Shown piece after piece: positions 3,615 to 44,800 of a stretch of DNA of 64,000 bases. Below the pieces are notes generated by a model, which made no database searches, had not been told where the DNA came from, and worked only from the letters and a program-made list of their open reading frames with translations. Position 1 is the stretch's first letter, and each line of letters begins with the position of its first letter. The stretch is from a virus: positions 14,196 through 78,195 of the IMG/VR virus record IMGVR_UViG_3300029365_000529. The stretch is one strand, 5' to 3'. The translations under genes were made by a program, and so were the position numbers.

Positions 3615-4082
3615 ATGAAACAAAGAATATTAGATATGTGTTGCGGATCTCGTATGTTTTATTTCGATAAGCAGGACCCACAGGTACTTTTTACCGACAT
3701 AAGAGAATATCACGACACATTATGTGATGGACGCAAATTAGACGTACAACCCGATATGATAGCCGATTGCACTAATTTGCCATTCGAAGATGAAACATTC
3801 GATATGGTAGTTTTCGACCCTCCTCATCTGCTAAAGGTAGGACAGAACTCATGGCTATGCAAGAAATATGGTAAGCTGCCCGAAAATTGGCAAGCATTCA
3901 TCAACGATTCTATCCATGAGGGCATGAGAGTACTGAAAACAAACGGAACGCTCATTTTTAAGTGGAACGAGCAGCAGATAAAGGTTAGTGATGTGCTAAA
4001 GGCTATCACCGATTACAAACCTATATTCGGACATCGTACCACCATCAAGAACCAAACTATTTGGATGGCATTCATGAAATAA
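3615..4082 (+). CDS. small SAM-dependent amino-methyltransferase (DPPH motif; N6A/N4C DNA or N2G RNA MTase class)
   Basis: Motif I-like LDMCCGSRMF followed by motif IV FDPPHL (D/N-P-P-Y/F/H family). Only 155 aa with no obvious target-recognition domain. Confidence 0.5.
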   Translation: MKQRILDMCCGSRMFYFDKQDPQVLFTDIREYHDTLCDGRKLDVQPDMIADCTNLPFEDETFDMVVFDPPHLLKVGQNSWLCKKYGKLPENWQAFINDSIHEGMRVLKTNGTLIFKWNEQQIKVSDVLKAITDYKPIFGHRTTIKNQTIWMAFMK

Positions 4083-4092
4083 ATAACCAACA

Positions 4093-4133
4093 ATCCCCAC
4101 CCAGCTATCACAGCCGAGTGGGGATTTCTTTTG
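4093..4133 (+). terminator. rho-independent terminator after the methyltransferase operon
   Basis: 8-bp stem ATCCCCAC/GTGGGGAT with 17-nt loop, followed by TTCTTTTG. Confidence 0.6.
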
Positions 4134-4191: not shown

Positions 4192-4503
4192 CTATACCAA
4201 TCTATCTACATATTTATCTAAATCTTTTTCGTACCAAACCAGCTCGGTCCATCCTTTCCGCTTTTTACCCTTTGGCAGCCTGCCTTCTTTCACAAGGCGG
4301 TCAAAGGTAGCCCTGGAAACATGAACATAGCCGCATGCCTCAGCCTTGCTGATAGGCTCGTCCTTATTAGCGATGCGGTGCAGAAAATCTAACATGAAAG
4401 CATTTTGCTGTTTGTTAGTTAAGCATCTTCCGCTCTGAATCCGCTCATGAAATTCCATCAGGAGCGAATCAATCATCTGCAGTTCTTCGCTAATCTTCGC
4501 CAT
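4192..4503 (-). CDS. helix-turn-helix DNA-binding protein (HTH_17/excisionase-like)
   Basis: ISKAEACGYVHVSRATFDRLVKEGRLPKG matches the MerR/excisionase-type HTH pattern; 103 aa. Confidence 0.5.
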   Translation of the reverse strand: MAKISEELQMIDSLLMEFHERIQSGRCLTNKQQNAFMLDFLHRIANKDEPISKAEACGYVHVSRATFDRLVKEGRLPKGKKRKGWTELVWYEKDLDKYVDRLV

Positions 4504-4506
4504 AAG

Positions 4507-4947
4507 CTAGCACTTTTTGTTTCTGTACCAGAGAGTGAACCCAATCGCGCAAGCCGCCAGTATAAACAGAAAGGCGATATAGCATCTGCCCAGTGACATC
4601 AGCCTTTGTTCGTTCTTCGTCAGTTGTCGCTCTATAGGATAAGGCACGGAGACTGAATCCGTCTTGATGATCGTGTCCGTCTTCACCTTATATATATTAT
4701 GATACCGGTCCCGGTAAACCACCTTGTTATGGAAAACCGTATCACCTTTCTGAAAAACATACACCGAATCCTTCATGTAGATACTATCCAACTTAGCAAA
4801 AGTATCAGTTCTGCATACGTATTCTGTTCTAACAGAAGGAACCTTGATATACTCCTTCGTCTTGCATCCTGTAAATGCCAATAGGATAATTCCAATCACC
4901 AAGCCGATGCAAGCCCATTTCCAAAACCTTATGTCATACCATTTCAT
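4507..4947 (-). CDS. candidate unimolecular spanin (N-terminal lipoprotein signal plus C-terminal transmembrane helix)
   Basis: Lipobox LLAFTGC near the N-terminus and hydrophobic C-terminus CYIAFLFILAACAIGFTLWY. Lies immediately downstream of the endolysin in the same operon. Confidence 0.4.
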   Translation of the reverse strand: MKWYDIRFWKWACIGLVIGIILLAFTGCKTKEYIKVPSVRTEYVCRTDTFAKLDSIYMKDSVYVFQKGDTVFHNKVVYRDRYHNIYKVKTDTIIKTDSVSVPYPIERQLTKNEQRLMSLGRCYIAFLFILAACAIGFTLWYRNKKC

Positions 4948-4950
4948 AAG

Positions 4951-5394
4951 CTATATCTCTTTGTATTCAACTTTAGCGTCAAAGCAAGGGCACTCCTTGA
5001 TTCTCTCCCAAGGATCCACCACGCCGTTATGGTTCCTGTCGGGCGAAATATCCCTATGCCCCAAGATTTCAGCATCCGGATATTTCTTCTTCAGCTGAGT
5101 GAGCAGAGTGATAAGCGATTTCTTCTGCTCCTCAGTTCTATTGTCTACCGCCTTTCCCTTCTTGTTGATACCGCCAACATAAGCCACATTGATAGCTGTA
5201 GCATTATATCCCTTCACGCCGTTGCTAACCATTTCTACCGGCAGCATCTGGTGAATCCCACCATCAGCAGTAATCACGTAATGATACCCTGGATTATTCC
5301 AGCCTTTGCGCTTAAACTCATCCCAAAGTTCCTTCACACACCATTTCTGAGAAGAGGCAGTGCAATGAACAAAAATTCTTTTAATCAGTCTCAT
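4951..5394 (-). CDS. N-acetylmuramoyl-L-alanine amidase endolysin (Amidase_2/PGRP, T7 lysozyme-like)
   Basis: Conserved Amidase_2 residues readable by eye: FVHCTAS, GYHYVI, KGYN, VGG, GHRD, CPCFD. Confidence 0.9.
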   Translation of the reverse strand: MRLIKRIFVHCTASSQKWCVKELWDEFKRKGWNNPGYHYVITADGGIHQMLPVEMVSNGVKGYNATAINVAYVGGINKKGKAVDNRTEEQKKSLITLLTQLKKKYPDAEILGHRDISPDRNHNGVVDPWERIKECPCFDAKVEYKEI

Positions 5395-5834
5395 TTTTTC
5401 TCCTCCTTTCCCTGCTCCTTCATAATCTCAGCAAAAGCCCTAGCCAAGTCTTCTTTATTTTCTAAGAGTATGCTGAAAGAACGTTCCTGCTTCCGTATCT
5501 CAGCCTTCTGCCAGCTTTTCTCCCTTACGCTTACAAATTCACAGAACACGCAATAGCCTGCCCATATCATAGAGAAGACAGGGAAGGGGAGAACCGTACA
5601 GGCTATCAGGTCTATGCAGACCGTCACCATGAAGGGAGAAAAGTATTTCCTCGCCTTGTCGCAAGTCTTCTTGAATCCTGTACTTGTCGTAGCCAGCCCG
5701 TTCTCTTTCGCTTTCTTGATACCGAAGAACAGGTCCACGCCCATAGAAATGATAAGAGCACCCATGCAGATGACAATAACCAATGCCGATCTGTACAGGT
5801 GCTCTTGTAAAAATGTATGTACTATCTCTGCCAT
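5391..5834 (-). CDS. putative holin (three predicted transmembrane helices)
   Basis: 147 aa with three hydrophobic helices and a charged C-terminus. Its stop overlaps the endolysin start in ATGA. Confidence 0.5.
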   Translation of the reverse strand: MAEIVHTFLQEHLYRSALVIVICMGALIISMGVDLFFGIKKAKENGLATTSTGFKKTCDKARKYFSPFMVTVCIDLIACTVLPFPVFSMIWAGYCVFCEFVSVREKSWQKAEIRKQERSFSILLENKEDLARAFAEIMKEQGKEEKK

Positions 5835-5860: not shown

Positions 5861-5903
5861 CAAAGATAAAAGGCTTTTCAATAGCTTTTGCCGTGTTCCA
5901 ACT
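5861..5903 (-). promoter_or_regulatory. late promoter: conserved GGTTGGAACACGGCAAAA motif plus -7 box TATCTTTG upstream of holin
   Basis: Motif at 5887-5903 (minus-strand reading); 17 nt downstream of it is TATCTTTG (TAnnTTTG), about 25 nt before the holin ATG. Confidence 0.5.
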
Positions 5904-6364
5904 TAGCTATTCATATACCACCAGATTTTATCTGTAGGGTGGTTTGTCGATTCGTCACAGAGGAAACTGATAGCCAGTTCCGAAATCCTTTTTCTTGTGG
6001 TATCTTTGTTCTTCGACCATTTGCCCACCACGTCTATATGGTCAGCATACATCTTATTCATCGTTACCGCAAAATCCCAGAAGTTGTAGTCCGGTATGTT
6101 CCAAGATAGCCGGTCATAATCATCCTTCAATTCATCAAACCCGAAGTAAGGAGCATACTTTTTGTGAACATCATCATCAAAATAATAGATGTTGGCGATG
6201 CAGGCTCTGCCCAGTTGCTCGTCAAAGTGATGCTTCCTTTCCATCCAGTAAAGCAGATTTCTCTGCACAATCCTCTCTTCTTCCTCTGTAAACCCGCACT
6301 CATCGTTTCTTAGCATCCCGAAGGCAGATTCTGCTATTCGATAGAGCGATTTTGATAAATCCAT
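5903..6364 (-). CDS. hypothetical protein (153 aa)
   Basis: Six-frame ORF; possible later start; partially overlaps 6300-6632 in another frame. Confidence 0.4.
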   Translation of the reverse strand: MDLSKSLYRIAESAFGMLRNDECGFTEEEERIVQRNLLYWMERKHHFDEQLGRACIANIYYFDDDVHKKYAPYFGFDELKDDYDRLSWNIPDYNFWDFAVTMNKMYADHIDVVGKWSKNKDTTRKRISELAISFLCDESTNHPTDKIWWYMNS

Positions 6365-6632
6365 AAGCGTAAAGCATTAAAGTGAATATGATAAACACAT
6401 GGTGCATCTCCAACTGCTCGGGAGTGATGAGCCAGTGCTGATAATACAATCTGATAGCGTTGATACCGAAAAAATAGAAGAACGGAATGCGGAAAATCCA
6501 GCAGTATCTGAAGAAGAAACTTACCGGTATCATGGTCAGTGGCATATAAATGTATGCCAGTACATAAATCCAGATGATGCAGTTTCCGTTGAAATCGGTA
6601 TCTACAACTGTTGGTCTAGGGATAGTGCCCAT
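6300..6632 (-). CDS. hypothetical membrane protein (110 aa)
   Basis: Very hydrophobic and aromatic-rich ORF; the overlap with the downstream ORF makes the exact boundaries uncertain. Confidence 0.3.
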   Translation of the reverse strand: MGTIPRPTVVDTDFNGNCIIWIYVLAYIYMPLTMIPVSFFFRYCWIFRIPFFYFFGINAIRLYYQHWLITPEQLEMHHVFIIFTLMLYAYGFIKIALSNSRICLRDAKKR

Positions 6633-6987: not shown

Positions 6988-7443
6988 ATGGCAAGAGCAA
7001 ATTACGAATTGATTGACAGACAGAGGGATGATCTGATGAAGGCGTATCGGGAGATAGCTCCTAATTGCCATTCTCAACAGGAGGCTTGGGAAAAGGTGGT
7101 TCATTCTCCTGCCCCCAGATACTATGTTTCTCCCAAAAGAGCTTGGGATATACTCCGCAGAATGGCAGTCGGCGATTTCTCAAAGGTGGATAGCATGAAG
7201 CCGATTCGGCAGAAGTTATACTATACGCTGTTCAATAGGATGAACGAAATGACGCAGCGAAAGGAATTCGTGGGCAAATCTTTATGGTTTATCTGCCAGT
7301 TCCTTGTTTCTGAGCCTGCACCCGAGTTCTTTATCCAGCCAAGTAATCTCAAATTCATTTTCGCTTACTATAAGAAGTATGGAAAAAATTACAGAGAAAT
7401 GGACCTTCGTAAGAAGAAACTTTCGAACAAAGCTGGTGCTTAG
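6988..7443 (+). CDS. hypothetical protein (151 aa)
   Basis: ORF directly downstream of a consensus promoter. Confidence 0.45.
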   Translation: MARANYELIDRQRDDLMKAYREIAPNCHSQQEAWEKVVHSPAPRYYVSPKRAWDILRRMAVGDFSKVDSMKPIRQKLYYTLFNRMNEMTQRKEFVGKSLWFICQFLVSEPAPEFFIQPSNLKFIFAYYKKYGKNYREMDLRKKKLSNKAGA

Positions 7444-7861
7444 CATAATCTGCCTCATTCTGTGTACTTGGCATGTCGGTTTTTATCCCGGTTGCCCATG
7501 GCAGAATCATATCCTGTATAGCTTCTTCCATGTCAACGGATTTCATCTTGCCGTAAACCTTCTGGTGCTTTGGCAGATAAAGAACGATATGAAACCAGTC
7601 ACTTCTCTGGCTGTTGCCTCTGTCGCTAGTCTGCTGCCCATGTATGTTAGTCAGCCTACAATGGGGCTTTCCGGTTTCCTATTCGCTTCCTTTGGTTTGA
7701 TGTGGGGTAGGACAGGACGATGGAAAGAGGCATTAAAGAAAGCGATGCCGTTCATTCTGTTCACGATGATCCTGAGTAATGTCAACGGACTTCTGCATCT
7801 TTACTGCTTCGTATTAGGCTATATCGTAGCATATTGCGTAAATAATATCAAAAACAGATAA
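7379..7861 (+). CDS. polytopic membrane protein, possibly rhomboid-like
   Basis: Internal Met of track ORF 7304-7861. GLSGFLFASFG (GxSG-like) and a later LHLYCFVLGY (His in a transmembrane helix) echo the rhomboid Ser/His dyad. The start is uncertain because it overlaps the previous ORF. Confidence 0.3.
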   Translation: MEKITEKWTFVRRNFRTKLVLSIICLILCTWHVGFYPGCPWQNHILYSFFHVNGFHLAVNLLVLWQIKNDMKPVTSLAVASVASLLPMYVSQPTMGLSGFLFASFGLMWGRTGRWKEALKKAMPFILFTMILSNVNGLLHLYCFVLGYIVAYCVNNIKNR

Positions 7862-28807: not shown

Positions 28808-29275
28808 ATGAAGAAATTTTTATTGATGCTGATAGCTGTATTCACTTTGTGCGCTTGCAGTAGTGATAGCTATGATGATGTAAAAAATGAAATCATCTAT
28901 GACGGTAATACTCATCAAATAAATAATGTGGAGATGGATAAAAGCCGTATTTGGTTCTATACCAGCGATGGCTATTGGTTCACTCTCGATAGCGAGAAAA
29001 TCACTGTAGGTAAGAAAATATATCTTATTGCCGATGAGCACTTAGATTCTTCTTTCTCCAAATTCCATGAGCCAGATAGCTACGCAGATATAGTTCATTC
29101 TTGGTGTAACAATGAAGACTATAATAACAAAAGAATAACTAGCGATTCTTATGTCTTGGTCAAGGGAAACAATGATGATAACAGATATTATATAGAGGTA
29201 TTCTTGGATGATGGCGTAAAGTATATTAGAGCCACATATTATGGTACGCCAAAATTAGGTTATATGGGGGATTAA
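28808..29275 (+). CDS. lipoprotein (155 aa)
   Basis: Signal peptide with lipobox FTLCACSSD. Confidence 0.6.
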   Translation: MKKFLLMLIAVFTLCACSSDSYDDVKNEIIYDGNTHQINNVEMDKSRIWFYTSDGYWFTLDSEKITVGKKIYLIADEHLDSSFSKFHEPDSYADIVHSWCNNEDYNNKRITSDSYVLVKGNNDDNRYYIEVFLDDGVKYIRATYYGTPKLGYMGD

Positions 29276-29534: not shown

Positions 29535-29807
29535 ATGAAATATCTAACATTATTGATTTGTATTATATTTATTTCATGTGGACCATCAAAACAAGAACTC
29601 CAAGATGAAATAGAATGTAAGAATGACACAATAGAAAATTTGAAAAGAATAATTAGTAATCAAGGGGATTACATAGAAGAACTTCAAGAAAAACTAGATG
29701 AAATTAAATCTCGTGCAAGCGATATTCAATCATCAATAGATGACGATTATATTGATGATGCTTATGATGCAGCATCTGATATAGAATCTGAAGCTGAGTA
29801 TGATTAA
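29535..29807 (+). CDS. lipoprotein with coiled-coil and acidic tail (90 aa)
   Basis: Lipobox IFISCGPS; C-terminal DDDYIDDAYDAASDIESEAEYD. Confidence 0.5.
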   Translation: MKYLTLLICIIFISCGPSKQELQDEIECKNDTIENLKRIISNQGDYIEELQEKLDEIKSRASDIQSSIDDDYIDDAYDAASDIESEAEYD

Positions 29808-29810
29808 AAA

Positions 29811-29850
29811 GAAAGGAGTGAGCCTTGCGCCCACTCCTTTATTTATTTAT
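29811..29850. terminator. bidirectional terminator shared by the lipoprotein operon and the giant gene
   Basis: Stem GGAGTGAGC/GCCCACTCC (one mismatch) with loop CTTGC, A-run upstream and TTTATTTATTTAT downstream. Confidence 0.6.
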
Positions 29851-32800
29851 TCCAATCTATCCAGTTCATCCACCGCATCCATCATAATCCTGTCAATATT
29901 CTGGTTAGCGAAGTTGATGCTCTCGGTATCTGAAGATTTATCTCTGAGTTTCTTCCATCGCTTCATCTGCTTCTCTGCCAGCTCGATTACTCTCACCTTG
30001 GCAGCCTCCTTGGAGTTTTGGAAGTGATAATACTCCCCGATATTCGTGATTCTCTTGTCAATCGGAACGTTCTTCGATTTCAGGCGGTCCACGTTGGCCA
30101 TGGTCTTTTCCATTTCGTCCTTGTAGTTATACCACTTGCTCTTGGTTCTCTGCAAGCTACTCTGCTCACTAGGCGTATAAAGAAGAGAGCGAAGGAAAGG
30201 AATATCCTTGGTTTCCGTGTCGCTTCCATGCTTGATAACACCGATAGCTCGCTCTGTAAAGGTAGCAGCGCCACCACCTATGCCACCGATGTAATGATTC
30301 AGCATACTAGGGTTCGTTACCATATCCAGGAAACTGTTGCCCAGCATATCCTCATTACCCTTGGCTACATCGTTGGTCTGGGCATTCACCCATTTATTCA
30401 CAGCCAGATAACCGTCAGGCACACCCTTGTAGGCTCTTTGCCAAGCAGGGGAATTTTCATTCCAGTCACCACGTCTTTCAATCGGCGCACCCTTCCAGTC
30501 GGTGTTTAACTCCCATTCCACGAAAGGAGATAGGGCAGAAGGAGAGATAGCCTTGATCGTCTCATTCAATGGCTCCTTGCCAGCCGAAGAGTTACCGAGA
30601 TAGTCCATCACCGGCACAAGCTGCGACATACAGCCCACGGCATCCAAGGCAGGATTCTTCTGTCCGCTTACGTTTGGCGAGAAGGTCAATCCAGCCGCCA
30701 AGTCACCCAAACCATAGAAGGCTCTCAACTCAATGGCAAGCGGAATAGTAACAAACTGACCGCCACCCTTGTAGATGCAGAGATTGTTTCTTCTCACGTA
30801 GTCAGGCAACTCGCCGTATGGGTCCTTCACGCCCTTTCTATCCTTCTCATCCTCACTCGCAATCAGCACATTGTTTCCAAGTGCAGCCAGAGCACCTAGG
30901 GCAAAAGGAATGGCAAGCATATTGATAGAAGTACCCACAGGATGATTCTTCAAGTTCTTCACAAGAAGATTTGTACTTTGAATACCGGCATTAAAGAACA
31001 TAGAACAATGTCTCAGATAGCTAGCCGTAAATCCGTAAGCCCATCTTGCAGCCGCCTTGCCGCCAGTCATTTCTCCGTTCTTGAAACTCTTGATGGCATC
31101 ACCGCTTCCATGGCGGTTGAAGTTGGTAGATACCTCCTTTGCATCATAGACCGAACGGATGATAGAACGGTTACTGTCTCGGCTCGCACAATAGGTAGCG
31201 AATCGGGCGATATTCTCAGCCACCTCGTTGATGTTCGCCAGATTTCCGAAGAAGAAGTCACGAAGGGCAGCGCCGCCCTTGTCAATCTTGCTTCTTTCGC
31301 TCTTCACATCTTTCTTGTACTCCTTGGTCCAGTCCTGCATGTTCTTGATCTGAACCCAACCGGTTTCGCCGCCGTTCTCCATGAACTCCTTGAAATATCG
31401 TTGAACCTTGTCAGAAGTATCAAGTGTTCCGTTACGATACTTGGCAAACAAGCCCAAGCCAGTAGTTCCGCTCAAATCCTTGAAGCTGATATTCGATGCA
31501 CCCTTATACAAGCCCAACTGCGCATAGTACTTCGTCCAGAGCGCACCATATCTTGCACCCTCCTTAGAAGTAACGTTGCTCGATGCAAACTCCGCATCAC
31601 GCATGATGTTTCGCATCACGAACTCAGGGTTATAAGATGTACACAACTGCGCCATCATTCTTGATATAGAACTCAATGGTTTCATGATTCCCTTGGCGCC
31701 CGAGTTCTCCAGCAATCCATTCAGAGCTTGCGCCGCTCTAGGATTTCCGTTGATAATAAAGGTATGGGTCCTTCCGGCAATCTTCACATCTACGATATGC
31801 TGCGATTTATTCTCCGCTCTTTGGAACTTATAGCCGATTCTTCCTCTTCGATACACCTTTGTCGCCAACCCCTTTGATTCCAAATCCTTCATTTCCATAT
31901 TGAAGTCTGCTACTATCTGATTTATTTCATCAGCCGTAGCGTCCTCGGGAATGTCTGGGTAACGCTCCACGGTGGTATGAGTGATAGGGTCATCGGCGTA
32001 CCAAACCCTAGTCTCCGTCACAAGATTATTGTTCGAGTTGTTTCTTACGAATCTTGCAAATGCCTGACGGATAGCGTTCATACCGCCATTCTTGATAGCT
32101 CTGTTACCCATCGCACCAATCTGCGCCAGTACGTTTGTTTCACTCAGATACTTGTGTCCTCTCGCTCTCATAATCGTGCTTCCGATGTAGCTCTTCGGGT
32201 CGCCCTGCTCAGTAATGTAGCCATAAGTATCTTCTGCAGTAGCCTCATCATACTTTCTCAAAGGCACATACCAGTTGAACATATCAGATACATGACCGTA
32301 AAGCTCTCTACTGATAAGACCATTCTTATAGTCAGTATCAATAGAATACTGGGTGGCAGCCTTCACCTTATCCCAATAGTCCTTAACAGACCCCTTCTTG
32401 ATACTCTCCATCTTTGCTTCTGAATCCATCACGCTAGCGATAGCCTCAGCATCATCGTAAGGATCAGAAGACTTAGCCACTTCCTGTATAGCGTGAATAC
32501 CCGAATAGTCATGTTCGCCAGCATCAAACTTATTGTCACTATCCACGTAGGTACGGATGAAATCGTCCATGCGCTCATAATAAGTCTTCAGGTCGATGTC
32601 TCCACGCTCCAATTTCTCGTCAAGGGTAGCTTTCTCGTTGTTCCAATCGAACTCCACAGTATCAGCTAGCTTCTTTGTCTTCTCGTTCATGCGCATATAC
32701 TTCAAGGCATCACGCACATACAAGATACGGTTTCGCTCCAAGCCGTGCTTGGTAATCATGTAGAGATTGAAGTTTCTGATCTTCTCATCATCCTTCTTGC

Positions 32801-35800
32801 CATCGAAAGCATCCAGTACGCCGGCCATGGCCTTATCAAGAGGCTTCATCACGTTGCGCTCAAATATCTGAGCCGCATCACTCATCGCACCCTGCATGGT
32901 GTTCTGCAGTATATAAGGATTCTCAGAAGAAGCAATATCTTCAATCTTCTTGTCAGGCACAATCGCATTCATCAACTTCTTCAACGAAAGCATATTGTCC
33001 ATATAGCTCTCGGTGAACATATAGCCATGTTCATCAAGCGAGCGGTGGTATCTGTCAAGTGCCGTGCCGGCAGATGGGGTAGTGCGGAAGTGAATCTCAC
33101 CATCTGTAGCCTCATTCCACTCAGCCTTGGTAAGATTATCCATACTTCTAACCTTAGCGTCATTTCCGTAGAACATACCATCATGAGCCACGACAGCAGG
33201 CATACGCTCATGGTCGAGACGGTATTTCACCGCCTCGACTCTCATTTTCCAATAAGGATCATTTGGATTCTTCTGCAAGTTCTTGCTCAACCAGAGCAGA
33301 TACTTCACATCTTTAGTATTAGGAGCAATACGATAACCGATTTCGTGAAGGAAATCAGATACCTTATTTTTGATACCATTCCAGAAGCCCGGTTCACCCT
33401 TGCCATCTTCGGCGAGTCGGGCGATACCTTCCTCAATGGCATCATAGATATTCAGAGGATTGAACTTTCTCTCCTCATCCACCAGCTTCTTTAAAGCCGC
33501 ATTCTCAGGCTTATCCAAGTCATACCATACTTCACGAAGGAACTTATCGAATCGTTCATCACCAAACAACTCTCTCATTCCCTTGTGTCCAACTACCTCA
33601 TGCCAGATAGTCTTCTCGGCAGTATATCTGTCGTGGATATTAGGCATATAAAGATGCACCTCGCCAGTCTTTTCATCATACCAGCCGGTAATCTTTCTGC
33701 CATCCTCAATAGCAGCCTTAGCTGCCTTGTTGGTGATTTCATCAACTGATGAAACCATCTTCACCTTGCCACCAGTCTTCTGAGCCACATTTTCGATATG
33801 GCTCTCAACCGATGAAGCAGGGTAGTTGCTTTCTCCATTATCCGTGCGGAATTTAGTGCCTCCGTCCTTGCCCCATTCCTTGTAGGCATCCTTTGTCATT
33901 TTTACGTTGACGAACTTAGCCTGAGGGAACTCCTGTTCCAGTTCAGCCATCTGCTTCAAGAACTTCTCCTTTGTTTCAGGGTTCTGTCTGCCTTGCTCTA
34001 CGGTAGTGATAGGCACACCAAGTTTTACAAGCTCTCTCAACTGGCTAGGGGTAACTACGTTCCAAGGGATAGCCAATCCGGTTCCTCTCAGTTGGTCGGC
34101 GATTTTCTCAGCAACCTCCTCGTCAGGCAATATTCTTACTGCCTTTCTCCATCTAGAGAGCATCACGCTTCTCTGTCTGTCCTTTGGCAGAAGGCTGTTT
34201 ACTGTTCCAGAAGTCCAAGGCACCAAGCCCACAGAGTTCTTTGCGCCCTCGGCGTGATAGCCGCTAGTCTTCTCGCTCTCAGGAATCTCCCATTCAACAA
34301 CCTTGATGTTGCCTCTAGCGTAAGCACCAGAGAACTGGTCGTTCATCACCGAAGTGGAAGTGTGCATGTAAGGGTTATAAGCCGCTGGCACTGGTCCTTC
34401 ACCTGCCCCAGGGTTCTTGTCGGTCTTTACAAGTTGGAACTTACCGTTCTTCACAAGGTCAGGTCGCTCGTCTGCGCCCATCCAAGCACCAATCTCGGTA
34501 GCATCGGTACGCTTTCCGTCAATGATAGCAGCCATAGGGGAGTACAACTTTCCATCCACCTCCTGCATTCCGCTATACATTCTGAAAGTCTTCTCCTTGT
34601 TGAGGCGGTCCAGCTCGTCCTTATCTGTGACCTTATAGGAGAATCCGTCCTGTTCAATCTCATTCATGGAAATATCATCAATGGTTTCATTGAAATCATC
34701 CATGATGTCATTGATAGCCTTATCCATCTTATCCTTCTCAGAAACCTCAAAGAGTTTCTTCCAAGCATCCTTCAAACGTTGCAGGATAGAACGGTCGCCC
34801 TTTCTTGCAAACTCATGTGCTGCATTCACAACTTTATCCCAGATAGACAAGTCCATCGCCTTTCTCTGTCTAGAATCTGCCATCTGAGCAGTCAACTCGT
34901 AAGCATCAGTCAGACCGTAAGGCTCTTCTTTGAAACGTTCCTTATCGCCCTTTACTCTGTCATAGATTTCGAGGATAGTCTTTACGCCCTCTATCTGCTT
35001 AGGAGTCAGCATGCCCTCAGCCTTGCCTTTCTTAACGAGATTGATAGCACCCATTGTTGCCTCATGAATCATTTCATGCAGCATGATGGTAGGGGCAGCA
35101 TAGTCTGGAGCTTTGGTCTTCGTTATACCATCAATGTATAAATCAATGTTTCTGCGAGTGTCCGCTTCTCCCGCCCTCTTGTTTGGATCCTCTGGGCTTA
35201 CTTTGATTCTTACGCCGAGGCGCTTACTTATATTGAGTGCTTTTTCGAAGAGTTCAGCCTTTTCTTTATCTCTATTTGTTTCTTTAAAAATTCGTTCAAC
35301 GTCTCCAAGTGTGAACGTTCCTCCTGGCTGCAATCCCCAAGTCTCTCTGAGATTCTTTGCTCTAGCGTCTCTATAGGCAAGTTCTCTGTCAGCGACGGCG
35401 AGAATGGTCTTATAATATTGCAGTAGATAAGAGCCTTTATTTCCCTTACCGTCATTCTTACCACCAAGATGTCCTCCGGTATGCTGTCCTGATAACTTTT
35501 CAACTTTTCGTTCATAATCATTCTTGTAATATTCAATAACGCTTCTACCAAGATCAGAAAACTCATCCAGAGCAGATTCAAGATTATCAGCAAACAAAGA
35601 TTTATCTCTGTCTTCTGTATGCTCTTCGATGTCCTTAATGGTAGAATCAAACTTCTTTTCAATCTGCGAAGATACATTTTTATCTACATCTTCCGGAATG
35701 ATTCTACTATTCTTAACATCTTTTGTATCTGTTTTAGAATACTGCAAGCCTCGGTCCTCACGGAAGTGGGTGCGTTCATCCTCAGAAGTATTGCGCTCCT

Positions 35801-38800
35801 CCTGTACCTTTACGCCCATCTTAGACAGGCGGTCCAGTACAGGCTTCAACTGATCAGGCTTAAACTCAGCAAGCATATTGTTGCCTCTTGTTTCGAAGTT
35901 ATTGCCATTAACCAGTTTCAGCAAATTTTCATCCATGAAGTACTTGCCGCCCTTCGCCTTGCTCTTCGGCACACGAAGCTCGTAGAAGTTGCCACGATTG
36001 TTGTCTATGCGCTTCACCTTCACTTCACCATCTGATGAAGTAACCTCGTCAATACCACCATGCCATGATGAAAGCTCAAACTTATCTACCACGCTGTTGA
36101 TAGGCGCATCCGTAGTCAAGCCCTTAGGGTCGAATCTATCTGGCATCAAGATACCAGTCTTCACCTCGCCAGTATCTGTAGTATATTTCACCAGCTGACC
36201 GCCCAAGCCCTGATCCTTGCTGTCAACCAAAGCCTGCATCAGATTACCAGTTACAATATAGCCATTCTTGCGGCTCTCATTGCTAGTCAGTCTATCCCAG
36301 TTATCAAAGTTTTGGTTCAATACTCTGAGATGGCTGTCTCCCATACCGGCAGCCTGCTTAGTCATGTTGTCGATGGCACTGATAACATCAGCCTTGTTGT
36401 CACCTGCGCCCACCTTACCCGCGATAGGGAATGTAATCTTTCTTCTGCCATCCAAGGTAGCGAAGGAAACCGAAGAGGCGTTAGGCGAGTAGTTATCAGT
36501 AATCTTGATGTCAATAAGTCTACCATAACTGTTACCGAATCCGCTCAACTCGTTAGGATTGTTCATATCCGTAGGCAGAACGAAAGTCTGGTTTGTATCG
36601 AAGGTATCAAGCACACGCTCAAACATTTCAGCCTTGGCTTTCAGGTTCTTCACCACATCGTTCAGCTTATCTTTCTCCTGCTTGTAGATGTTGTCATACT
36701 GATAGCCAGCCATCTTCTCGATCTGCTCATCGCTCATGCCCGAATCCTTCTGACCCTTCTTGCCATCCTTGATATACTTCTCCTTAGCCTTGGTTGCAGC
36801 CTTCACGGCACGCTCCTCATACTTCTGAGTCTCGTCCGCAATCTTCTGGTCGAAGTACTCCTTCACGGCAGCCTTCTTATCGGTCTTGTATTCATCCCAA
36901 GTCTTGCCGCCAGTCAAACCATCCTGCGAAGCCTTCACCTCAGAAGCCTTCATTGGCTTCTTCAAGATGGCCATGTTCACCTTTTCTATATAGGTGTTGT
37001 CTGCAAAGGCGTTATCGCCGCCCGGCTCTGCACCCTGTTTCCAAACTTCCTTGTGGAGAGTCTTAGCCTTCAAAGGCAACTCAGTAATCTCAAGGTCATT
37101 CTCACCCATTTCGTTGAGTCGCTGAATCTCGTTGGCATAAAGCTCGCCAATCTCCTGCAACATCTTCTCCTGCTCAGAAACTCTCAGCAGAGCCATACGC
37201 CCAAGCAACTTGCTTGCATCGGCACCAGCTTCACCTTCACCAACACCGCCACCGCTAGCAACAAGAGTTTGGGGGTCGATTCTAGACAAATCATCGCCAT
37301 TACTCTTTTCCCATCCGAATGGATCAGCCATGCGTGCATAAAGGTCAAGATGCTCTGCCATATACTCACGAACTACCTTATCACCATATTTATTGGTAAT
37401 ATCGGCAACTTCCATTTCGTTGAACTTACTCTTCTGAGAAGAAGTAGTGTTGGCATCAAGTGACTTCAACTTAGCCTTAAACATCATCAGCAGTCGCTGC
37501 TCGGCAGGGATAAGGGAAACCACATATTCGTATGCACCTCTAGCCACCTGACCGGTTCGGTCGATTCGTCCACGCATCTGAACTTCATCGTTTACGTCAA
37601 GTTGCTGCTGCGCCACGATCATCACACGCTTCTTCTGGTCCTTATACTTGCTCGAAGCATGAAGGGAAATACCGGTTGCTGCACTCTTGTTGAGAATAAG
37701 CGCATCAATCTTACCATCGTTAAAGTCGCGCGCGAGTTTCTTCTTGTCTGTATCTGCACGCTTTACCTTGGTAACAGTTCCGTTGTCGTTATAAACAAAC
37801 TCGGTCTGTCTACCGGTCAGCTCGCCAACCTTATAGCCAGCCTTCTGCAGCTCGTTCTTGATTACATCAATAGGAGAGAGGGAAAGACCGGTACTTGTCT
37901 GCTCAATCTTCTTTTCCAGTTCGTGATAAGCATCAACTGCCTCATCGCCCAAATCCGAAAGCTTGATGTAACCGCTTTCGCTATTATCCTTTGCATCCTT
38001 CTGGGTATAGCGAAGTGTACCTTCAAGACCCTTCTTCAAAGATGTACCCAAGTCTGGTGCGTCCATTTCCTCGCCAAGCGCAAGGTTGCCAGTCTGCGAT
38101 TCGTTGGTATTGTTCAACGCAATCACAGGCTTCATGCCCTGCTTCAAATAGTCGATGGCACGTTCTGCAGCAGACTTTGCTTTTAGGGAAAGAAGAACCT
38201 GCTGAACGGCATTGAATGCCTTGCTGGCAAATGGCTGATTTTTGATACCCAGGGCAGCCGTTCCCTTCTTGATTCCCATGGTAGACTGAATGGCAGCCAA
38301 CTCGTCATTACGCTCATCCACGTAACTTGAAACATATTTCTTTTGGAAATTGATAATATCATTAAACAATCCGATGATGCTATCATACTGTTCTCGCTGC
38401 TCCTGCACTCGCTCTGGATCATCAATAGCCTTCCAGTCGATGGTTACGCCAGTCATATCTCGCTCACGGCGAATCATCTGACCGCATTGCGTCAAGGTCT
38501 GGCTCATAATCTCCTGCAAGGTTGCACCACCACGCTTCACCGCATCAATCAAATCGGATGATTTCATACCGCCCTCGTTCATGGCAGTACGCAAAGCGTA
38601 GATAGGCATGTTGTCTGGTCTCTTGGCAAAGGTAGCCGAGAAGAAGGTAACATTCTTTGCCTTCTGAATAATGTGTTGGAAATAGTTGCCCTGTCCGCTA
38701 TTGCCACCAGCCGTGTGGCTTTCGTCAAGGATAAGATAGGCGTTACCCATCAGTTTTTCAATAGCATCACGTCTTTTCTGTCCGCTCAGAGCAGCAGCAC

Positions 38801-41800
38801 CGAAAGATTTACCCTTCGCAAGCTTTCTCTCCTTGCGGTTGCCATCCTCGTCAAACTCATACACACCATTGCTTACTTGGCTGTAAGTAGTCAATACATA
38901 GTCATATTCGTCTGGCAGCTTTCCATTCTTTTCGATGTAATCAAGCACTCGCTTCACCTCGCTCTTCGATGGCAAAGCAAATACTACTTTTCCGTCTGAG
39001 TCGGTAATGGCAGCTTCCTTGGCGCTACCGAATACAAATGGTCTTAGGTCTGGGCTGCCAATATCCACCAAGTCACGGTAAACATCGCTCAGCAATCCTG
39101 CTGTCTTGGTGAAATATACAGGAACCTGACCCTGCTTCTTGGCGTATCTGATAAGTGAAGCAGCCTGTCTTCCCTTACCGATACCTGTCATATCTCCAAT
39201 GATGAAGGCATTGCCCTTCTTTGCCTGCTGCAAGGCAAGGGCTACAGAGTCAACCTGCTCTGCAGCAAGATGAGAATACAAATCATCCTTATCATTATAG
39301 CCCAGCTCGTCAACAAGGAACTGGTCGGCATCGCCCAACTTTTCAAGATTCTTGTTTACTGCCTCCTGCTGATCGGCAGGCATCACGGCTTTCAGAGTGA
39401 ATGGATTTCCACTCTTAGGTGTATAGGTAACTTTCTCGGTGCTTAATCCACGTACGGATTTGTCCACCCGCTGTAATTGTCCCCGTGGTCCGCTTCCGCT
39501 CCCGGCGTTGGAAGGCTCATCAGTACTTGGCTGAGCGTCATTCCGTCCAGCTCCTCCTGATCCATTTCCTCGCTGCTCATTGGTTCCAGTGGTTGGTTCT
39601 TTGCTTGGAGAAGGCTCTGTCCCTGTTCCGTCTGCTCTACTATCTCCATTAGGAAGTCCTCCATCTTGTCTTGGCTCGGTTCCTCGTTGATTTTCCAAGT
39701 CATCATGGGTTCCTGATACGGAAGTGGAGTCAAATAGGTCAGACTCTCGCTCACCATCTGGTTTGCTTCCTCCTCGTTCTCCTGCTCGTACTCTCTCTTT
39801 AGGAGTACCAGCAGCGCCTTGTTTATCAAGTTCTGGTTGAGCACTTCTTGTTTCTCCTCCGATGGAAGAATCCATCCGTTCACCTCGTAGTATATCATCT
39901 TCAATTCGTTTATAAAGTTCGTCATAATCTTTCACGGTCTCTGCTCTAGCCTTATCCTTTACTGGTGGAAAGGCATTTTCATTCAAGCGTCTTCCGTTTA
40001 TTAATATAATACGTGTAGGGTAGCTGGTTCCCTGCTTTGCATAGAGACTGCCATCCACATTAATCACGTCCTCCACATTATAGTGGCTATAGAGATAACC
40101 AAGGAAAGCCTTATCTTTCGGATTCAGACTTCCGTTCTTGGCGTATTCCGTCTTGCCGCCGACGATAATGGCTGCACGGCCATCGTCTTTCATGCTCTCC
40201 AAGGCATTGATAGCCATCTGTCCTTCCAAAGAAGAAATCTTATAGCCGTCATACTCCTTAGGGGTAGCACTACCGAATGGTGGGTTTGTTACCACCACGT
40301 CAACGTCCTTGTCTGCAAAAGGCTGAGTTCCGTCCTGACTGGTCACGTTCTTGAAGCCCTGTCTTCTCAGGTTCGCCAATCGCTGGGCATCAATATCGTT
40401 CACATGCACCTTATCCATTGGCAAGCCGATGGTAAGCATACCGTTGCCGGCACTAGGCTCCAGAGTACTCTCAATCACCTTGCCGTTACCCTTCACATAC
40501 ATATCCGCAAGGAAAGCGTAAGGGGCAGGGGTAGAGTACTGCTGCTTCATCACTCGCTCAGAATCACGCTGGTTGAGGCTAGGCTGATTCTCATAGAGTG
40601 TCTTGATGCGTTCAAACTTCACGGCATCGTTGGTTGATTCAGAAGAAGCGATACCTCTTGCTCGCTTAACAATAGCAGTCTCAGCAAGCTCCTGCAAGTC
40701 CGTGTCCTTAATATCCTTCAAGCCAACTCTTTCAGCGATTTGTCTCAGTTCAACTATTCCGTTAAACTTATGCTTGAAACCCAACTTTATGTTCACGGTA
40801 TCAATAAACTTCTTCTCAGCCATCTTTCTCTCCTCGGCAGTCTTTGAGTCACCCACCAGATTCTCCTGATGCTTAGGCGAAGTTTTCTCGTAGAAGTCAG
40901 CCCAATCCTTCAAACTCATGCGCTGCTCACCATCGCGATAGCGGATATTCATCATCTGCTCATAGATAGCATCCACGTCTTCCTTCTTAAAGAGCTTGGC
41001 AGCAGGAGCAAACTCCTTGCGCATTTCCTTCACCACGTCTTCAAGATTGTGCATACCTCTCTTGATTCTCAGATAAGCATTTTCGGCCATGGCGCTCACC
41101 AGCTTAGGCAATACTTCCAACTGTCTAGAGTTAAGACCAATAAACGAAGCGGATATTTCGTCCTTACCGGCATTCTTGAGCATATCCCAAAGGTCATTAA
41201 CCTTCTTGTTGGAAGCTGCTACTGCTGCATCGTCAGCCTTCTGCTGAGGCTTCTTCTCTGTCTCAGCCTTAGTTTTCTTCTCCTTACCAAAAGCTTCTGC
41301 TGCATTCTTGATTCCTTCCATAGGGTCAGCAGATGGTTCCGTTTTAGGAGTCTCAACCTTTGGTTCAGTCTTCTGTCCTCTGGTCTTGGCAAAGATACTT
41401 TCATAGATAGCACGATGCAAATCATCTGTCACCTCACCGTTCAGATAATCAAGAGCCATATCCTTGGATAAATCATCCACGTCAGCCTTCATGATCTCCT
41501 CCTCAGTCAGAGGATGCTCCTTCTTGAATTCCTTGGCAGCCGCCGCAATCGGGTCAAAAGTAGGGTCTGGCTTCTCTTCCTTAGGAAGGAGTGGGAGAGG
41601 TTTTTCTTTTACCTTACCGTCAACATATTCGACAACCTCATTCAGGTCGCCAAACTTCTTGCCATCATACTCATAGTATGAGCCGGTATATTCTCCCTTA
41701 TCGTTTGGCTCATCAACCTTGATAACCTCCTTGTCGCCATCAATAAGAATCTTCTGCCTTGTGATAGGACCGTTCTCAGATGGAGTTTCGGTTTCCTCGT

Positions 41801-44800
41801 CAGTAACCTTAATACGACTTTCAAGTTCTTTGTTTACTAAGTCGTCTGGTTCTTCTACTCTTGGTCGTTCTGGTTCTGTTCCTGCTTCTGCTGGTTCATT
41901 TCCTCCTGATGCTTCTTGTTGAGGTTCTTCATTGCCTGAAACATCATTGCCTCCTTCAATTTCTGAATGTCCTGTTCCATAATCTTGCCATTTTTTAAAG
42001 TTCAAATACTCATTAATTAACTCTTCCTTGGTAGGAGCTGCCTCAAACATATTGCCCTCGCCAGTATTTCTAGCCTTAGCGATGCGGTTGTATTCGTCAA
42101 GCAAATCTCTGAAATCAGAAACCTTGCCCTCCAAGGCTAAAGCCATCATCTGAGAGATAGAAGAGTAACGCTTAGCCGCATCCTCACCGAACATGTCTGG
42201 TGTTCTCAGCAGCGTATCAACCTTATTGCCACCCTGTCTTGCCTCATAGAGCAACTGTATAGCCTGATCAATCTCATCACGAAGAGAGAACTCACCCAGC
42301 TTCATGTTGTCCATTACCGAGCGGATAGCGTTGATAGCCTTATTCTTCACCGTAGAGTCGATGCCCAACATTCTGATAGTCTCTGGCTTGAAGATTGAAC
42401 CCAACAGAAGGTTCTTCACATACTCCCTGCCTTGTGCAGAAAGCCGTTCAGGACTATCCATCATCTGTGCCACCTCGTTCTGTCCGATGATGCCTTTATC
42501 TACTAACGTCTTCACCAAGTCATTTATTGCCTTGGAATTGTTAAAGAAAGCATCAAGAGAGCCATTTCCCTCAATCTCTGCAACAATCGCACCTACTTCG
42601 TCAGAAGTCAAGGTCTTAGCCTTGGCAACCGCCTGTTCGGTATTGCTCTGTGTCTTCTTCTCGTTTCTGTTGAATTTGGAGAAGGTAGCCGTATCGTATG
42701 GCAGTCTCTCATCCGTCACCAATACAAGACGTGGATGCTCGATTCCACTCTGCTCAATCTGCTCTCTGGTAAAGCCGAAGTTCTCGGCATTCTCCAAAAG
42801 GTCGTTGATGTATTCTGCGTCTGTGCCTTCCTTTGCAGCCTTCTGTCCTGCCATGGTTCTACCGTTACCATCATAAACGATACCCTCGTCAGATACCACT
42901 GGCACCTGCTCGATAGCCATACCGTTATACTTCCTAGCAATCTGGTCCGTATTCTGCTGAGCCGCCTTGTCGTGCTCATAGTCACGGTCATTCACGGTTC
43001 TGCCCTCAGCATCGGTAGGGAATCCCTCAGATTTCTTATAGCCATTGTTCACATCGTGAGAAGGAGTAAGACTTTCTGCCGGCACAATCTCATAGTGTCC
43101 CTTAATCTTTGTCTCTCCGTCAGGCAGCATTCTTGTACGCTTGTTACCCACCAGTCTTGGTGCATTCACAAACTTCTGTGCAGCCACGCTACCAGCTTCA
43201 TGTGCGCCCTCAGTCTGTTCTGTATTACCCACAGTCTCCGCAACCTTCTTGGCAGTCATAGCCTTCTTGATATTCTGAGCGTGGTCCAGCTGCTTCTTGG
43301 CAGCTTCAATAGTCTGATTCTTCAAAGTCTCCTGCTCCATGATGTCGTTAGGTTCGGCGGTATAGTCCACCTTCATCTTCTCGGCATCCTTCAAAGCCTT
43401 CTCTGCTTTCTGAATCTGTCCGTCCACTACCTTCTCGGCATTATCCCCGAAATCCTCAGTAAGAATCTCCGCACTCTGCTCAGGAGTCATTTTCTCATAG
43501 TCAGGCGTAGGTCTTCCCTTGCTGTCCGTAGCCATAGGAACATCTGAACCATCGGCAAACTTACGGGTAGGCTGAGGCTGCTCTTGTGGTACAAATTTCT
43601 CGGTTTTGGTATTATTTTCGCCCGATGCGGTATTATTTTCGCCCGATGCGGTATTATTTTCCTCATTTGTGGTATTATCTTGTGGTGCTTCCTGCTCCTT
43701 TGGCTGAGGCTTGGCAGCATCCTGCATAGCTTGCTCCTGTGCTGCCTGATTGTATGGCTCAGAGTTCTTCATCTGTAATCTCTGACGATATTCTGCAGCA
43801 AACTGGTCGATAGGCTGATTCTGAAACAGAGTAACCTCATCTGCCTTCACATAAACCATTTCCCTGGTATTAGGGTCGAAGCAGACAAGCATATCGCCGC
43901 TACCTTCCTTGGCTCTACCTGTAGTCTGGTCAAAGGCAACATCACCCGAACCAACAAGAAGTGTTCTTCCGTTGCTGTCTTGCACGTACAAAGCTTGCTC
44001 GCCATTCATCGGCTGGCCATTCAATGTTCCGTGATAGCTCCAATCAGAAATAAAGCTCTTCACATTTTCCTCTATGACATCAGCAGTAGCTTCCTGCATA
44101 CCCTGCACTCTAGCGTTCGCATTAATATATTGGGCAAGTGGGGTCAACTCTTCTTGGGTCAATCCATTCTGAATGAGTGCATCGTAAATCTGTGCCGGTG
44201 TCAAGCCCTGCTGGTGCAATTTCTCAAATGTTTGCTTGAACACATCGTTGCTATCCATTGCTTCATCAACCGCCTGTTCTGCATTCCGAAGGTTGCGCAA
44301 CTCATCAACTACCACGCCGCTATCCGGGTTGTCCGTTCCCAGACTATGCTCCTCGGCAACCGTCTTGCCTTGGCTGGCAGACTGGTCTGCGTGTGGTCTC
44401 CAGCTAGGAAAAAGCTCATCTTCGAGTGCTCTCTTCACATGATAGAAGATTCTGTTCTCCTCATCGGTACGCTTCATTGGGTCCTTGCGCATGATTTTGT
44501 CAATATCAATAACAATGCTTCCTTCTTTACCAAGAATTTCTTTGATAGAAGCCATGAAGTTATTAGTATAGCCTCTGCTTTCTGATCTGAGGTAGCCAAG
44601 CAAACCGTTTTTGTCCGCATACTTCTCCCAGTCAAGATAGAGCGCACTCTTCTGGTTGCGCAACTCATTAATCAGTCGGGCATTATTCGGGTCTGTAATA
44701 TCCTTATTCTCGTCATATCCGTTTTCTTTAAGAAATCTAAACGCTAGATTAGTGACAGTTCCATCATCATCTAAGAACTGCATATCCTTCATTCTTGCAT

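Follow-up and report, generated by a model that had tools for sequence, protein, structure and literature searches.

We report a compact lysis cassette in a 64,000-nucleotide stretch of viral DNA (IMG/VR record IMGVR_UViG_3300029365_000529, positions 14,196 to 78,195; hereafter the window). In this cassette, a holin-like gene and an amidase gene are followed by a gene for a 146-residue protein that is very probably a unimolecular spanin (u-spanin), i.e., an outer-membrane-disruption factor. The protein combines a predicted lipoprotein signal peptide with a predicted C-terminal transmembrane domain (TMD), and these two topology signals define u-spanins (Kongari et al. 2018, PMC6139136). Both are conserved in a very large family of proteins, whose genes lie directly downstream of many unrelated types of endolysin genes; these observations agree with the u-spanin assignment made in an earlier note on this sequence. 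The best explanation of the locus is a late lysis operon of a tailed gut phage of approximately 75 kb that infects Bacteroides, and its three-step layout is ordinary for a phage of a Gram-negative host. The family appears to be a new sequence family of a known class, and both the family and its reach into Crassvirales appear to be unrecorded.

Lipoprotein signals were called with a pattern rule of the PROSITE PS51257 type, and TMDs were called by Kyte-Doolittle hydropathy. We take this rule to place the lipobox Cys within residues 15-35 and a Lys or Arg among the first seven residues. The N-terminus of the 146-residue protein, MKWYDIRFWKWACIGLVIGIILLAFTGC, carries the lipobox LAFTGC with the Cys at position 28, as well as Lys2 and Arg7, and the lipoprotein signal recognized in the earlier note fits the rule in this form. 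Residue +2 of the predicted mature lipoprotein is Lys29, not Asp. The +2 Asp sorting rule derives from Escherichia coli and may not apply in Bacteroidota. The C-terminal transmembrane helix proposed in the same note was also recovered, with a Kyte-Doolittle maximum of 2.22, and the tail RNKKC that follows it is consistent with a cytoplasmic C-terminus. Among 1,984 combinations of start codons and open reading frames (ORFs) in the window, the spanin candidate was the only one in which a lipobox and a C-terminal TMD occurred together. Within or adjoining positions 4507-4947, no lipoprotein ORF was found in any frame, the sole internal match being the C-terminal TMD itself. The lack of an embedded or adjacent small lipoprotein ORF excludes a two-component spanin, and an embedded outer-membrane subunit (o-spanin) was rejected on this ground.

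The structure of the spanin candidate was modeled with AlphaFold2 using an alignment of 149 sequences, which gave a mean predicted local distance difference test (pLDDT) score of 77; an earlier run with 34 close sequences had a pLDDT of 57 and was too poor for use. The model contains helices at residues 6-26 and 111-143 (pLDDT 90-94) and a confident beta-hairpin at residues 58-79, formed by strands 58-67 and 70-79 (pLDDT 83-92). Residues 29-110 include no helix or coiled coil and are extended outside the hairpin. A Foldseek search of BFVD returned a few uncharacterised gut-virus proteins, which are apparently family members, and no known spanin. Scans of the protein against Pfam, PHROGs and NCBIfam gave nothing usable (best match phrog_6360, E 0.01), and a profile search of PDB sequences with the family gave nothing at E <= 10.

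Homologues of the spanin candidate are numerous. A word-indexed search identified 286 close homologues, all in metagenome or 'Bacteriophage sp.' records, and the lipobox and C-terminal TMD were both kept in 109 of the 110 that were full-length. When 1.84 billion cluster representatives were searched with a profile, 2,634 clusters at 50% identity were found at E <= 1e-3 and 659 at E <= 1e-10; the 90%-identity cluster of the window protein alone has 1,438 member sequences. Both signals were present in 130 of the 148 top distant representatives, and most exceptions were truncated or frameshifted. Cys28 is the only invariant column among the 149 aligned family sequences and is also invariant in alignments A1, A2 and A5. 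A lipobox was detectable in 144 of the 148 representatives, with position -1 always Gly, Ser, Ala or Thr and position +2 mostly Lys, Arg, Thr or Ser (Lys or Arg in 102) and never Asp. The C-terminal helix is conserved in hydrophobicity and not in sequence. The predicted periplasmic segment has a motif of its own, in which Asp-Ser/Thr pairs recur at six-residue spacing (D48, D54 and D60, then D69, D91 and D97) in the pattern DTxxxxDSxxxxDS...GDT...TDTxxxxDS, and distant members carry VPYPVEKxLSKWE directly before the TMD. Periplasmic Cys residues were absent from 80 of 118 distant representatives and numbered one or more in the other 38, and Cys45 of the window protein is not conserved. No model of the family exists in Pfam, PHROGs or NCBIfam, a PHROG scan of 48 diverse members matched no family at E <= 1e-3, and all family members retrieved were named 'hypothetical protein' or were unannotated in the databases.

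The conservation of the N-terminal region bears on a different topology, in which this region would be an uncleaved signal anchor and the protein would sit in the inner membrane with two TMDs joined by a periplasmic loop, like a holin or pinholin. The hydrophobic segment at residues 12-27 is long enough for a membrane span, and the signal peptidase II call came from a pattern rule; however, that rule accepts the sequence, and the Cys is preceded by Gly, Ser, Ala or Thr in all 144 lipobox representatives and followed by Lys or Arg in 102 of them. In addition, a separate holin with three TMDs is already present in the cassette, and the loops of class II holins are short, unlike the conserved periplasmic domain of 90 residues in this family. 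The uncleaved anchor was rejected on lipobox conservation and the separate holin, and we regard it as extremely improbable.

The genomic context of the family provides the strongest argument for a putative spanin. It was analyzed in a close set, comprising 80 related IMG/VR loci (sub-alignment A1) from phage genomes of approximately 75 kb, and in a distant set obtained by scanning species-representative genomes with sub-alignment A3, which gave 188 loci, of which 80 were kept. In all 80 related loci, the holin, endolysin, spanin and helix-turn-helix (HTH) genes were present in the same order. The endolysin was an Amidase_2 protein in 72 of these and a Glyco_hydro_19 protein in 8, never both, and in the Glyco_hydro_19 variant the flanking holin and HTH proteins remained 87% and 74% identical, respectively. 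Such an enzyme swap within a fixed frame is typical of lysis cassettes.

Nearly all of the 188 distant loci belong to Bacteroidales, including Bacteroides, Phocaeicola, Prevotella/Segatella, Parabacteroides, Paraprevotella, Barnesiella, Paludibacter and Muribaculaceae. Prophages that encode a family member include those of Segatella copri HDE04 and Bacteroides sp. KFT8. Of the 80 distant loci kept, 71 had an ORF on the same strand that ran up to the family gene or stopped shortly before it; in 27 of these 71, the overlap was exactly 4 nt. The upstream ORFs matched Amidase_2 (9 loci), Phage_lysozyme (8), Peptidase_M15_3 (7), Amidase_3 (6), DUF5675 (5), Glyco_hydro_19 (3), Glyco_hydro_108 (2), Glucosaminidase (2) and Peptidase_M15_2 (1). 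A peptidoglycan hydrolase was thus encoded directly upstream of the family gene in at least 38 of the 71 loci, or in 43 if DUF5675, a domain of the crAss 'L,D-carboxypeptidase' endolysin, is counted. Of 67 loci with an ORF before the hydrolase gene, 45 had one that coded for a small membrane protein. The recurrence of these hydrolases and membrane proteins indicates that the family gene ends a holin-hydrolase-X cassette across at least eight unrelated hydrolase families. The ORFs downstream of the family gene share nothing among the distant loci, and since these downstream genes are not conserved, the family gene is taken to be the last of the cassette.

This linkage can be set against the possibility that the 146-residue protein is a lipoprotein for superinfection exclusion or for modification of the host envelope, whose gene is only carried along with those for lysis. 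Exclusion is a role of phage lipoproteins such as Cor and Llp, and three other lipoprotein-like ORFs occur elsewhere in the window. On the other hand, across dozens of unrelated cassettes with the order holin-endolysin-X, the family gene either overlaps the endolysin gene by 4 nt or follows it after a 3-nt spacer, and an exclusion lipoprotein does not need a C-terminal inner-membrane anchor. An exclusion lipoprotein was rejected on this endolysin coupling and on the anchor, and we consider it very unlikely.

The protein might also be a lysis-associated membrane protein other than a fusogenic spanin, such as an antiholin, a regulator of lysis timing or an envelope-tethered regulator of the endolysin. 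Homology to any proven spanin was not detected, and the family member of phage cr116_1 precedes a holin-like gene annotated 'lysis regulatory protein/holin'. However, proteins that regulate holin timing normally reside in the inner membrane and lack a lipobox, whereas the one invariant residue in this family is the lipobox Cys. A membrane anchor at each end, approximately 90 residues apart, is the geometry that defines spanins, and no other spanin candidate was found near the cassette. A role of this kind seems unlikely.

Several observations weigh against the assignment of the family as spanins. No hydrolase domain was recognisable in the upstream ORF of 28 of the 71 distant loci, or of 33 if DUF5675 is not counted as one. 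The signal peptidase II and transmembrane calls come from a pattern rule and hydropathy, and the periplasmic part of the AlphaFold2 model outside the hairpin has a pLDDT of only 58-68. The rules of lipoprotein sorting in Bacteroidota differ from those in E. coli, and the outer-membrane localisation of the protein is assumed. Spanin function across the family is a property that we infer from sequence and gene order. The spanin models in PHROG, Pfam and NCBIfam showed no similarity to the family, and hhalign gave a probability of 4% for T1 gp11 against family profile A5, with 16 aligned columns that all fall in the signal and lipobox. Finally, the window protein has the periplasmic residue Cys45, whereas none of the 58 catalogued u-spanins, which form 13 families with many singletons, has a periplasmic Cys (PMC6139136); this is a regularity of the catalogue and not a defining feature.

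If the 146-residue protein is a u-spanin, lysis could proceed as follows. The three-TMD holin would accumulate in the inner membrane and open holes, through which the signal-less zinc amidase of the T7 lysozyme fold would reach the periplasm and cut the MurNAc-L-Ala bonds of peptidoglycan. After its export, the 146-residue protein would receive a lipid at Cys28, and signal peptidase II would cleave it. The lipid-bearing end would then be inserted in the inner leaflet of the outer membrane, while the C-terminal helix would stay in the inner membrane with RNKKC in the cytoplasm, so that the strand-prone periplasmic segment of approximately 90 residues would span the distance between both membranes across the meshwork of murein. 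After murein loss, this segment may collapse or oligomerise, draw the membranes together by a putative fusion step and destroy the outer membrane. In this scheme, sequence and comparison show the two topology signals, their conservation and the recurrent close linkage to holin and endolysin genes; lipidation, sorting to the outer membrane and fusion are drawn from the analogy with T1 gp11.

A broader proposal, which we advance tentatively and hold to be somewhat doubtful, is that the family is the device with which Bacteroidales phages in general, temperate prophages and some crAss-like phages included, disrupt the outer membrane, and that it arose independently of proteobacterial u-spanins and may act via its own periplasmic module. 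This module would comprise the hexad Asp-Ser/Thr strand motifs, the central beta-hairpin and the juxtamembrane motif VPYPVE...KWE, and it could zip up between molecules after murein removal.

The other two proteins of the cassette are a holin-like membrane protein and an amidase. The first has three predicted TMDs (residues ~15-37, 64-82 and 85-103 by Kyte-Doolittle hydropathy), a strongly basic loop at residues 38-63 that is predicted to be cytoplasmic and a highly charged C-terminal tail. Its identity to the BS-TP3 protein gp14, which is annotated as a 'holin family protein' of this Bacteroides phage, is 53%, and its PHROG matches were phrog_20732 (7e-39), which has no assigned function, and phrog_199 'holin' (E 0.008). 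No Pfam holin family matched it at threshold; the BS-TP3 homologue itself scored 16.8 bits against Phage_holin_4_1, for which the cut-off is 22.2. Topology and position fit a putative class I-like holin with three TMDs, and the holin label suggested in the earlier note is based on these two features and a single annotated homologue.

The second protein matched Pfam Amidase_2 (PF01510) at 2.1e-15, with 57.7 bits against a cut-off of 26, and phrog_822 'amidase' at 4e-47. It aligned to T7 lysozyme (1LBA/1ARO) at 2e-19, including the zinc-ligand positions in VHC and GH(R/H), and His10 and His112 fall on the T7 ligand positions. C135, in KECPCF (KACPSF in T7), is outside the aligned stretch, and its correspondence was judged only by eye. 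Hydropathy revealed no signal or signal-arrest-release (SAR) sequence in the amidase, and the enzyme would therefore need a hole-forming holin. The data support the previous reading of this protein as an amidase of the T7 lysozyme type; it is a predicted zinc-dependent N-acetylmuramoyl-L-alanine amidase and a cytoplasmic endolysin. Like T7 lysozyme (gp3.5; PDB 1LBA), it has the same fold and size and the aligned His zinc-ligand positions; unlike it, it has an insertion of approximately 10 residues before the C-terminal CPCF motif. RNA-polymerase inhibition is not implied for the window amidase.

The three cassette genes are consecutive ORFs that fill positions 4507-5834, and all lie on the minus strand, which had been left unstated (Table 1). 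The earlier note described all three as overlapping by ATGA. This is true of the holin/amidase junction (5394-5391), where the amidase ATG overlaps the holin stop codon, and of no other junction in the unit. The amidase/spanin and spanin/HTH junctions instead share the nonamer TAGCTTATG (4945-4953 and 4501-4509, minus strand), in which both read TAG-CTT-ATG, i.e., a stop codon, 3 nt and a start codon in the same frame. Consequently, the amidase, spanin and HTH genes form a single reading frame divided only by TAG stops, an arrangement that is kept in relatives: TAGC[T/G/C]TATG occurs at the amidase/spanin junction of the 72 loci with an amidase and at almost every one of the 80 spanin/HTH junctions. 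The junction could be a signal that couples termination to reinitiation.

Table 1. Positions of the lysis genes and associated features in the window
Feature	Position	Strand	Remarks
Holin-like protein gene	5834-5391	-	147 aa
Amidase (endolysin) gene	5394-4951	-	147 aa
Candidate unimolecular spanin gene	4947-4507	-	146 aa
Predicted lipoprotein signal peptide (residues 1-27) and lipobox Cys28 codon (4866-4864) of spanin candidate	4864..4947	-	F-T-G-C lipobox
Predicted C-terminal transmembrane helix of spanin candidate, residues ~121-141, then basic tail RNKKC	4525..4587	-	Hydropathy, AlphaFold2
HTH gene	4503-4192	-	103 aa; last gene of unit
Possible Bacteroides-type -7 promoter element TATCTTTG (TAnnTTTG)	5861..5868	-	27 nt upstream of holin ATG
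Terminator-like hairpin, 16-bp stem, 8 G-C pairs	4092..4126	-	Between HTH gene and convergent methyltransferase gene

Recoding of the stop codon at the in-frame TAG junctions was considered and not adopted, because no tRNA was found in the window, the standard code leaves the 5,767-residue ORF uninterrupted and 17 of the 75 putative genes of the window have TAG as their stop codon. TAA ends 50 of these genes, and the amidase, spanin and HTH genes all end in TAG. Read-through fusion across the junctions received no support.

With regard to transcription, no terminator-like site was found between the holin, amidase, spanin and HTH genes, except for a weak 6-bp match inside the amidase gene, and the hairpin that follows the HTH gene probably marks the end of the transcription unit. 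The possible promoter element TATCTTTG matches the consensus only and is a weak candidate: TAnnTTTG was counted 73 times in the window, where 48.9 +/- 7.3 would be expected, and the full Bacteroides promoter pattern TTTG-N19-TAnnTTTG gave no match here, only the -7 element being present.

An HTH_17-type ORF of 103 residues lies immediately downstream of the spanin gene, as reported before, with an HTH_17 (PF12728) score just under the Pfam cut-off (E 4e-5, 24.2 bits versus 27); some of its close homologues carry PF12728 in a precomputed table. It also scored 21.2 bits (3e-4) against TIGR01764 'excise', for which the cut-off is 28.8. Its weak PHROG matches were to regulators, excisionases and small terminases, with phrog_25900 'transcriptional regulator' the best (6e-6) and two families of small terminase subunits (TerS) among them (phrog_57, 0.0017; phrog_4102, 0.0074). 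Homologues in annotated phages are nearly all from Crassvirales (cr111_1, cr116_1, IAS virus, cr3_1, cr128_1, cr106_1, cr112_1 and cr271_1) and are 37-43% identical to the window protein; five are labelled 'terminase small subunit', and gp020 of cr116_1, annotated 'terminase small subunit / excisionase', is 37% identical at 2e-20.

The HTH gene had been described as an unusual neighbour of a lysis cassette. It follows the spanin gene in all 80 relatives, and in the two Steigviridae phages cr116_1 and cr111_1 a homologue is located approximately 0.4 kb downstream of the lysis genes, so it is better viewed as a neighbour typical of this lineage. Among the distant prophage loci, the family gene is not followed by this HTH gene. 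The best explanation is that the HTH protein is a homologue of the crAss-type 'small terminase/excisionase-like' gene product and would be a DNA-binding late protein, not a lysis factor. Whether it would act in packaging or as an AlpA/excisionase-like transcriptional regulator of late or lysis genes is a close question, and we rate the regulator just short of an even chance. The regulator is favored by the best PHROG match, the TIGR01764 score, the name 'AlpA' given to homologues by JGI, the location of the HTH at the C-terminal end (residues 50-100) and the short length of the protein for a TerS. The five Crassvirales annotations and the weak phrog_57 and phrog_4102 matches speak for the terminase subunit, and all labels for either role are at the level of annotation.

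Other genes of the window are those of a tailed phage and include a portal gene (phrog_156), a gene for a terminase-like protein and tail fibre genes; the candidate large terminase subunit (TerL) has 705 residues. The portal protein shares 31-35% identity with its counterparts in BS-TP4, BKO1-TP3 and BF1-TP2, which are cultured Bacteroides phages. By far the largest gene of the window is a single uninterrupted ORF of 5,767 residues (29847-47150, minus strand). Lipoprotein signals without a C-terminal TMD were seen in three ORFs, at 28808-29275 (plus), 29535-29807 (plus) and 61623-62411 (minus), with the signals …FTLCAC-SSDSYDD, …IFISC-GPSK and …FSTTSC-SERVD, respectively. In the first of these, the acidic stretch after the Cys resembles a Bacteroidota surface-export signal. 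These three proteins may be host-surface or exclusion lipoproteins.

Two further ORFs are located directly upstream of the holin gene, one coding for a DUF7841 protein (2.5e-8; 5903-6364, minus) and the other, which overlaps it, for a 110-residue multi-TMD protein (6300-6632, minus). They are kept in 79-80 of the 80 relatives and could supply extra lysis-timing or membrane components. A DNA methyltransferase gene (3615-4082, plus; phrog_954, 6e-73) converges on the lysis unit; it was found in only 44 of the 80 related loci and is therefore a variable accessory gene.

A gene on the other strand (7379-7861, plus), located approximately 1.5 kb upstream of the cassette, encodes a conserved membrane protein of 160 residues that resembles a minimal rhomboid intramembrane serine protease. 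It is present in all 80 related loci. The protein scored 21 bits against Pfam Rhomboid (E 4e-4; cut-off 22.6), and eight homologues share, without variation, an HxxxN-like motif (FHLAVN), GLSG and, further along the chain, NVNGxLH. A profile of these homologues matched only GlpG chains in the PDB (16 of 16), weakly (best E 0.017), and a PDB search with the single sequence returned only noise. We found no literature on phage-encoded rhomboids. More speculatively, this rhomboid-like protein could act on a membrane anchor of the cassette and gate lysis.

Spanins are routinely missed in annotation. A named profile of this family would make the final lysis step annotatable in thousands of gut Bacteroidales phages and prophages, abundant ones included. 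The gene also offers a concrete object for the study of outer-membrane breach in Bacteroidota, whose lipoprotein sorting differs from that of E. coli. Moreover, since different hydrolase modules take the place between an unchanging holin and spanin, the family marks cassette boundaries for the engineering and mining of endolysins.

A u-spanin had been called rare in the earlier note, and this does not hold for the host group in question: a survey from 2025 reported that Bacteroidetes phages use only unimolecular spanins (PMC12596118), and a holin-lysin-spanin operon has been mentioned for a Bacteroides prophage in the paper on BV01 (PMC8354205). From these reports, such a protein is to be expected in this host group. 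Bacteroides phage B124-14 was listed as spanin-less in the u-spanin catalogue, in which homology was defined as 40% identity over 40% of the length (PMC6139136).

One of the closest known systems is gp11 of phage T1, the prototype unimolecular spanin, which has 133 residues (146 in the window protein), a lipobox (LSGC, Cys22) and a C-terminal TMD, and which is likewise encoded by the last gene of a holin, endolysin and spanin cassette. In both proteins, a periplasmic segment of approximately 80-90 residues lies between the anchors; that of T1 gp11 is predicted to be mainly beta-sheet (PMC6139136), and the model of the window protein has a beta-hairpin and no helix. The two differ in that the periplasmic domain of the window family has its own motifs (the D-S/T hexads and VPYPVEKxLSKWE), the host phylum is Bacteroidota and T1 uses a pinholin and a SAR endolysin, whereas the window phage encodes a three-TMD holin and a cytoplasmic endolysin. 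With lambda Rz/Rz1, the candidate shares the presumed task, i.e., linking the membranes and destroying the outer membrane after murein loss, as well as the position at the end of the cassette. Unlike Rz/Rz1, it is a single polypeptide with no o-spanin ORF and no predicted periplasmic coiled coil.

Among Bacteroides phages, BS-TP3 (PQ571276) has a similar arrangement in gp14-gp15-gp16, namely a homologous holin, an endolysin and a third protein that combines a lipobox (LFGSC) with a C-terminal TMD. This protein, gp16 (PQ571276.1, 3799-4332, minus strand), has 177 residues, is encoded directly after the endolysin and is labelled 'hypothetical protein'. Its similarity to the window protein, judged by eye, is not evident, and it is probably an analogous u-spanin of another sequence family. 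The BS-TP3 cassette differs from that of the window in that its endolysin is a Peptidase_M15_3 protein and no HTH gene follows gp16.

By its portal, the window phage is not crAss-like. The spanin family extends to the crAss-like phage cr116_1 (Steigviridae). Its gp015 (NC_055882.1, 2468-2851, plus strand) is approximately 36% identical to the window protein, has the lipobox LSAC and a C-terminal TMD, and is encoded next to genes for a holin-like protein and for an endolysin of the L,D-carboxypeptidase (DUF5675) type, although the order here is spanin, holin, endolysin. The annotated coding sequence (2507-2851, 'hypothetical protein') starts inside the signal peptide. Read from the upstream ATG, the protein begins MKRLVFVILTILMLSAC and is a predicted lipoprotein with a C-terminal TMD, and by this predicted topology gp015 is a spanin that was missed by annotation.

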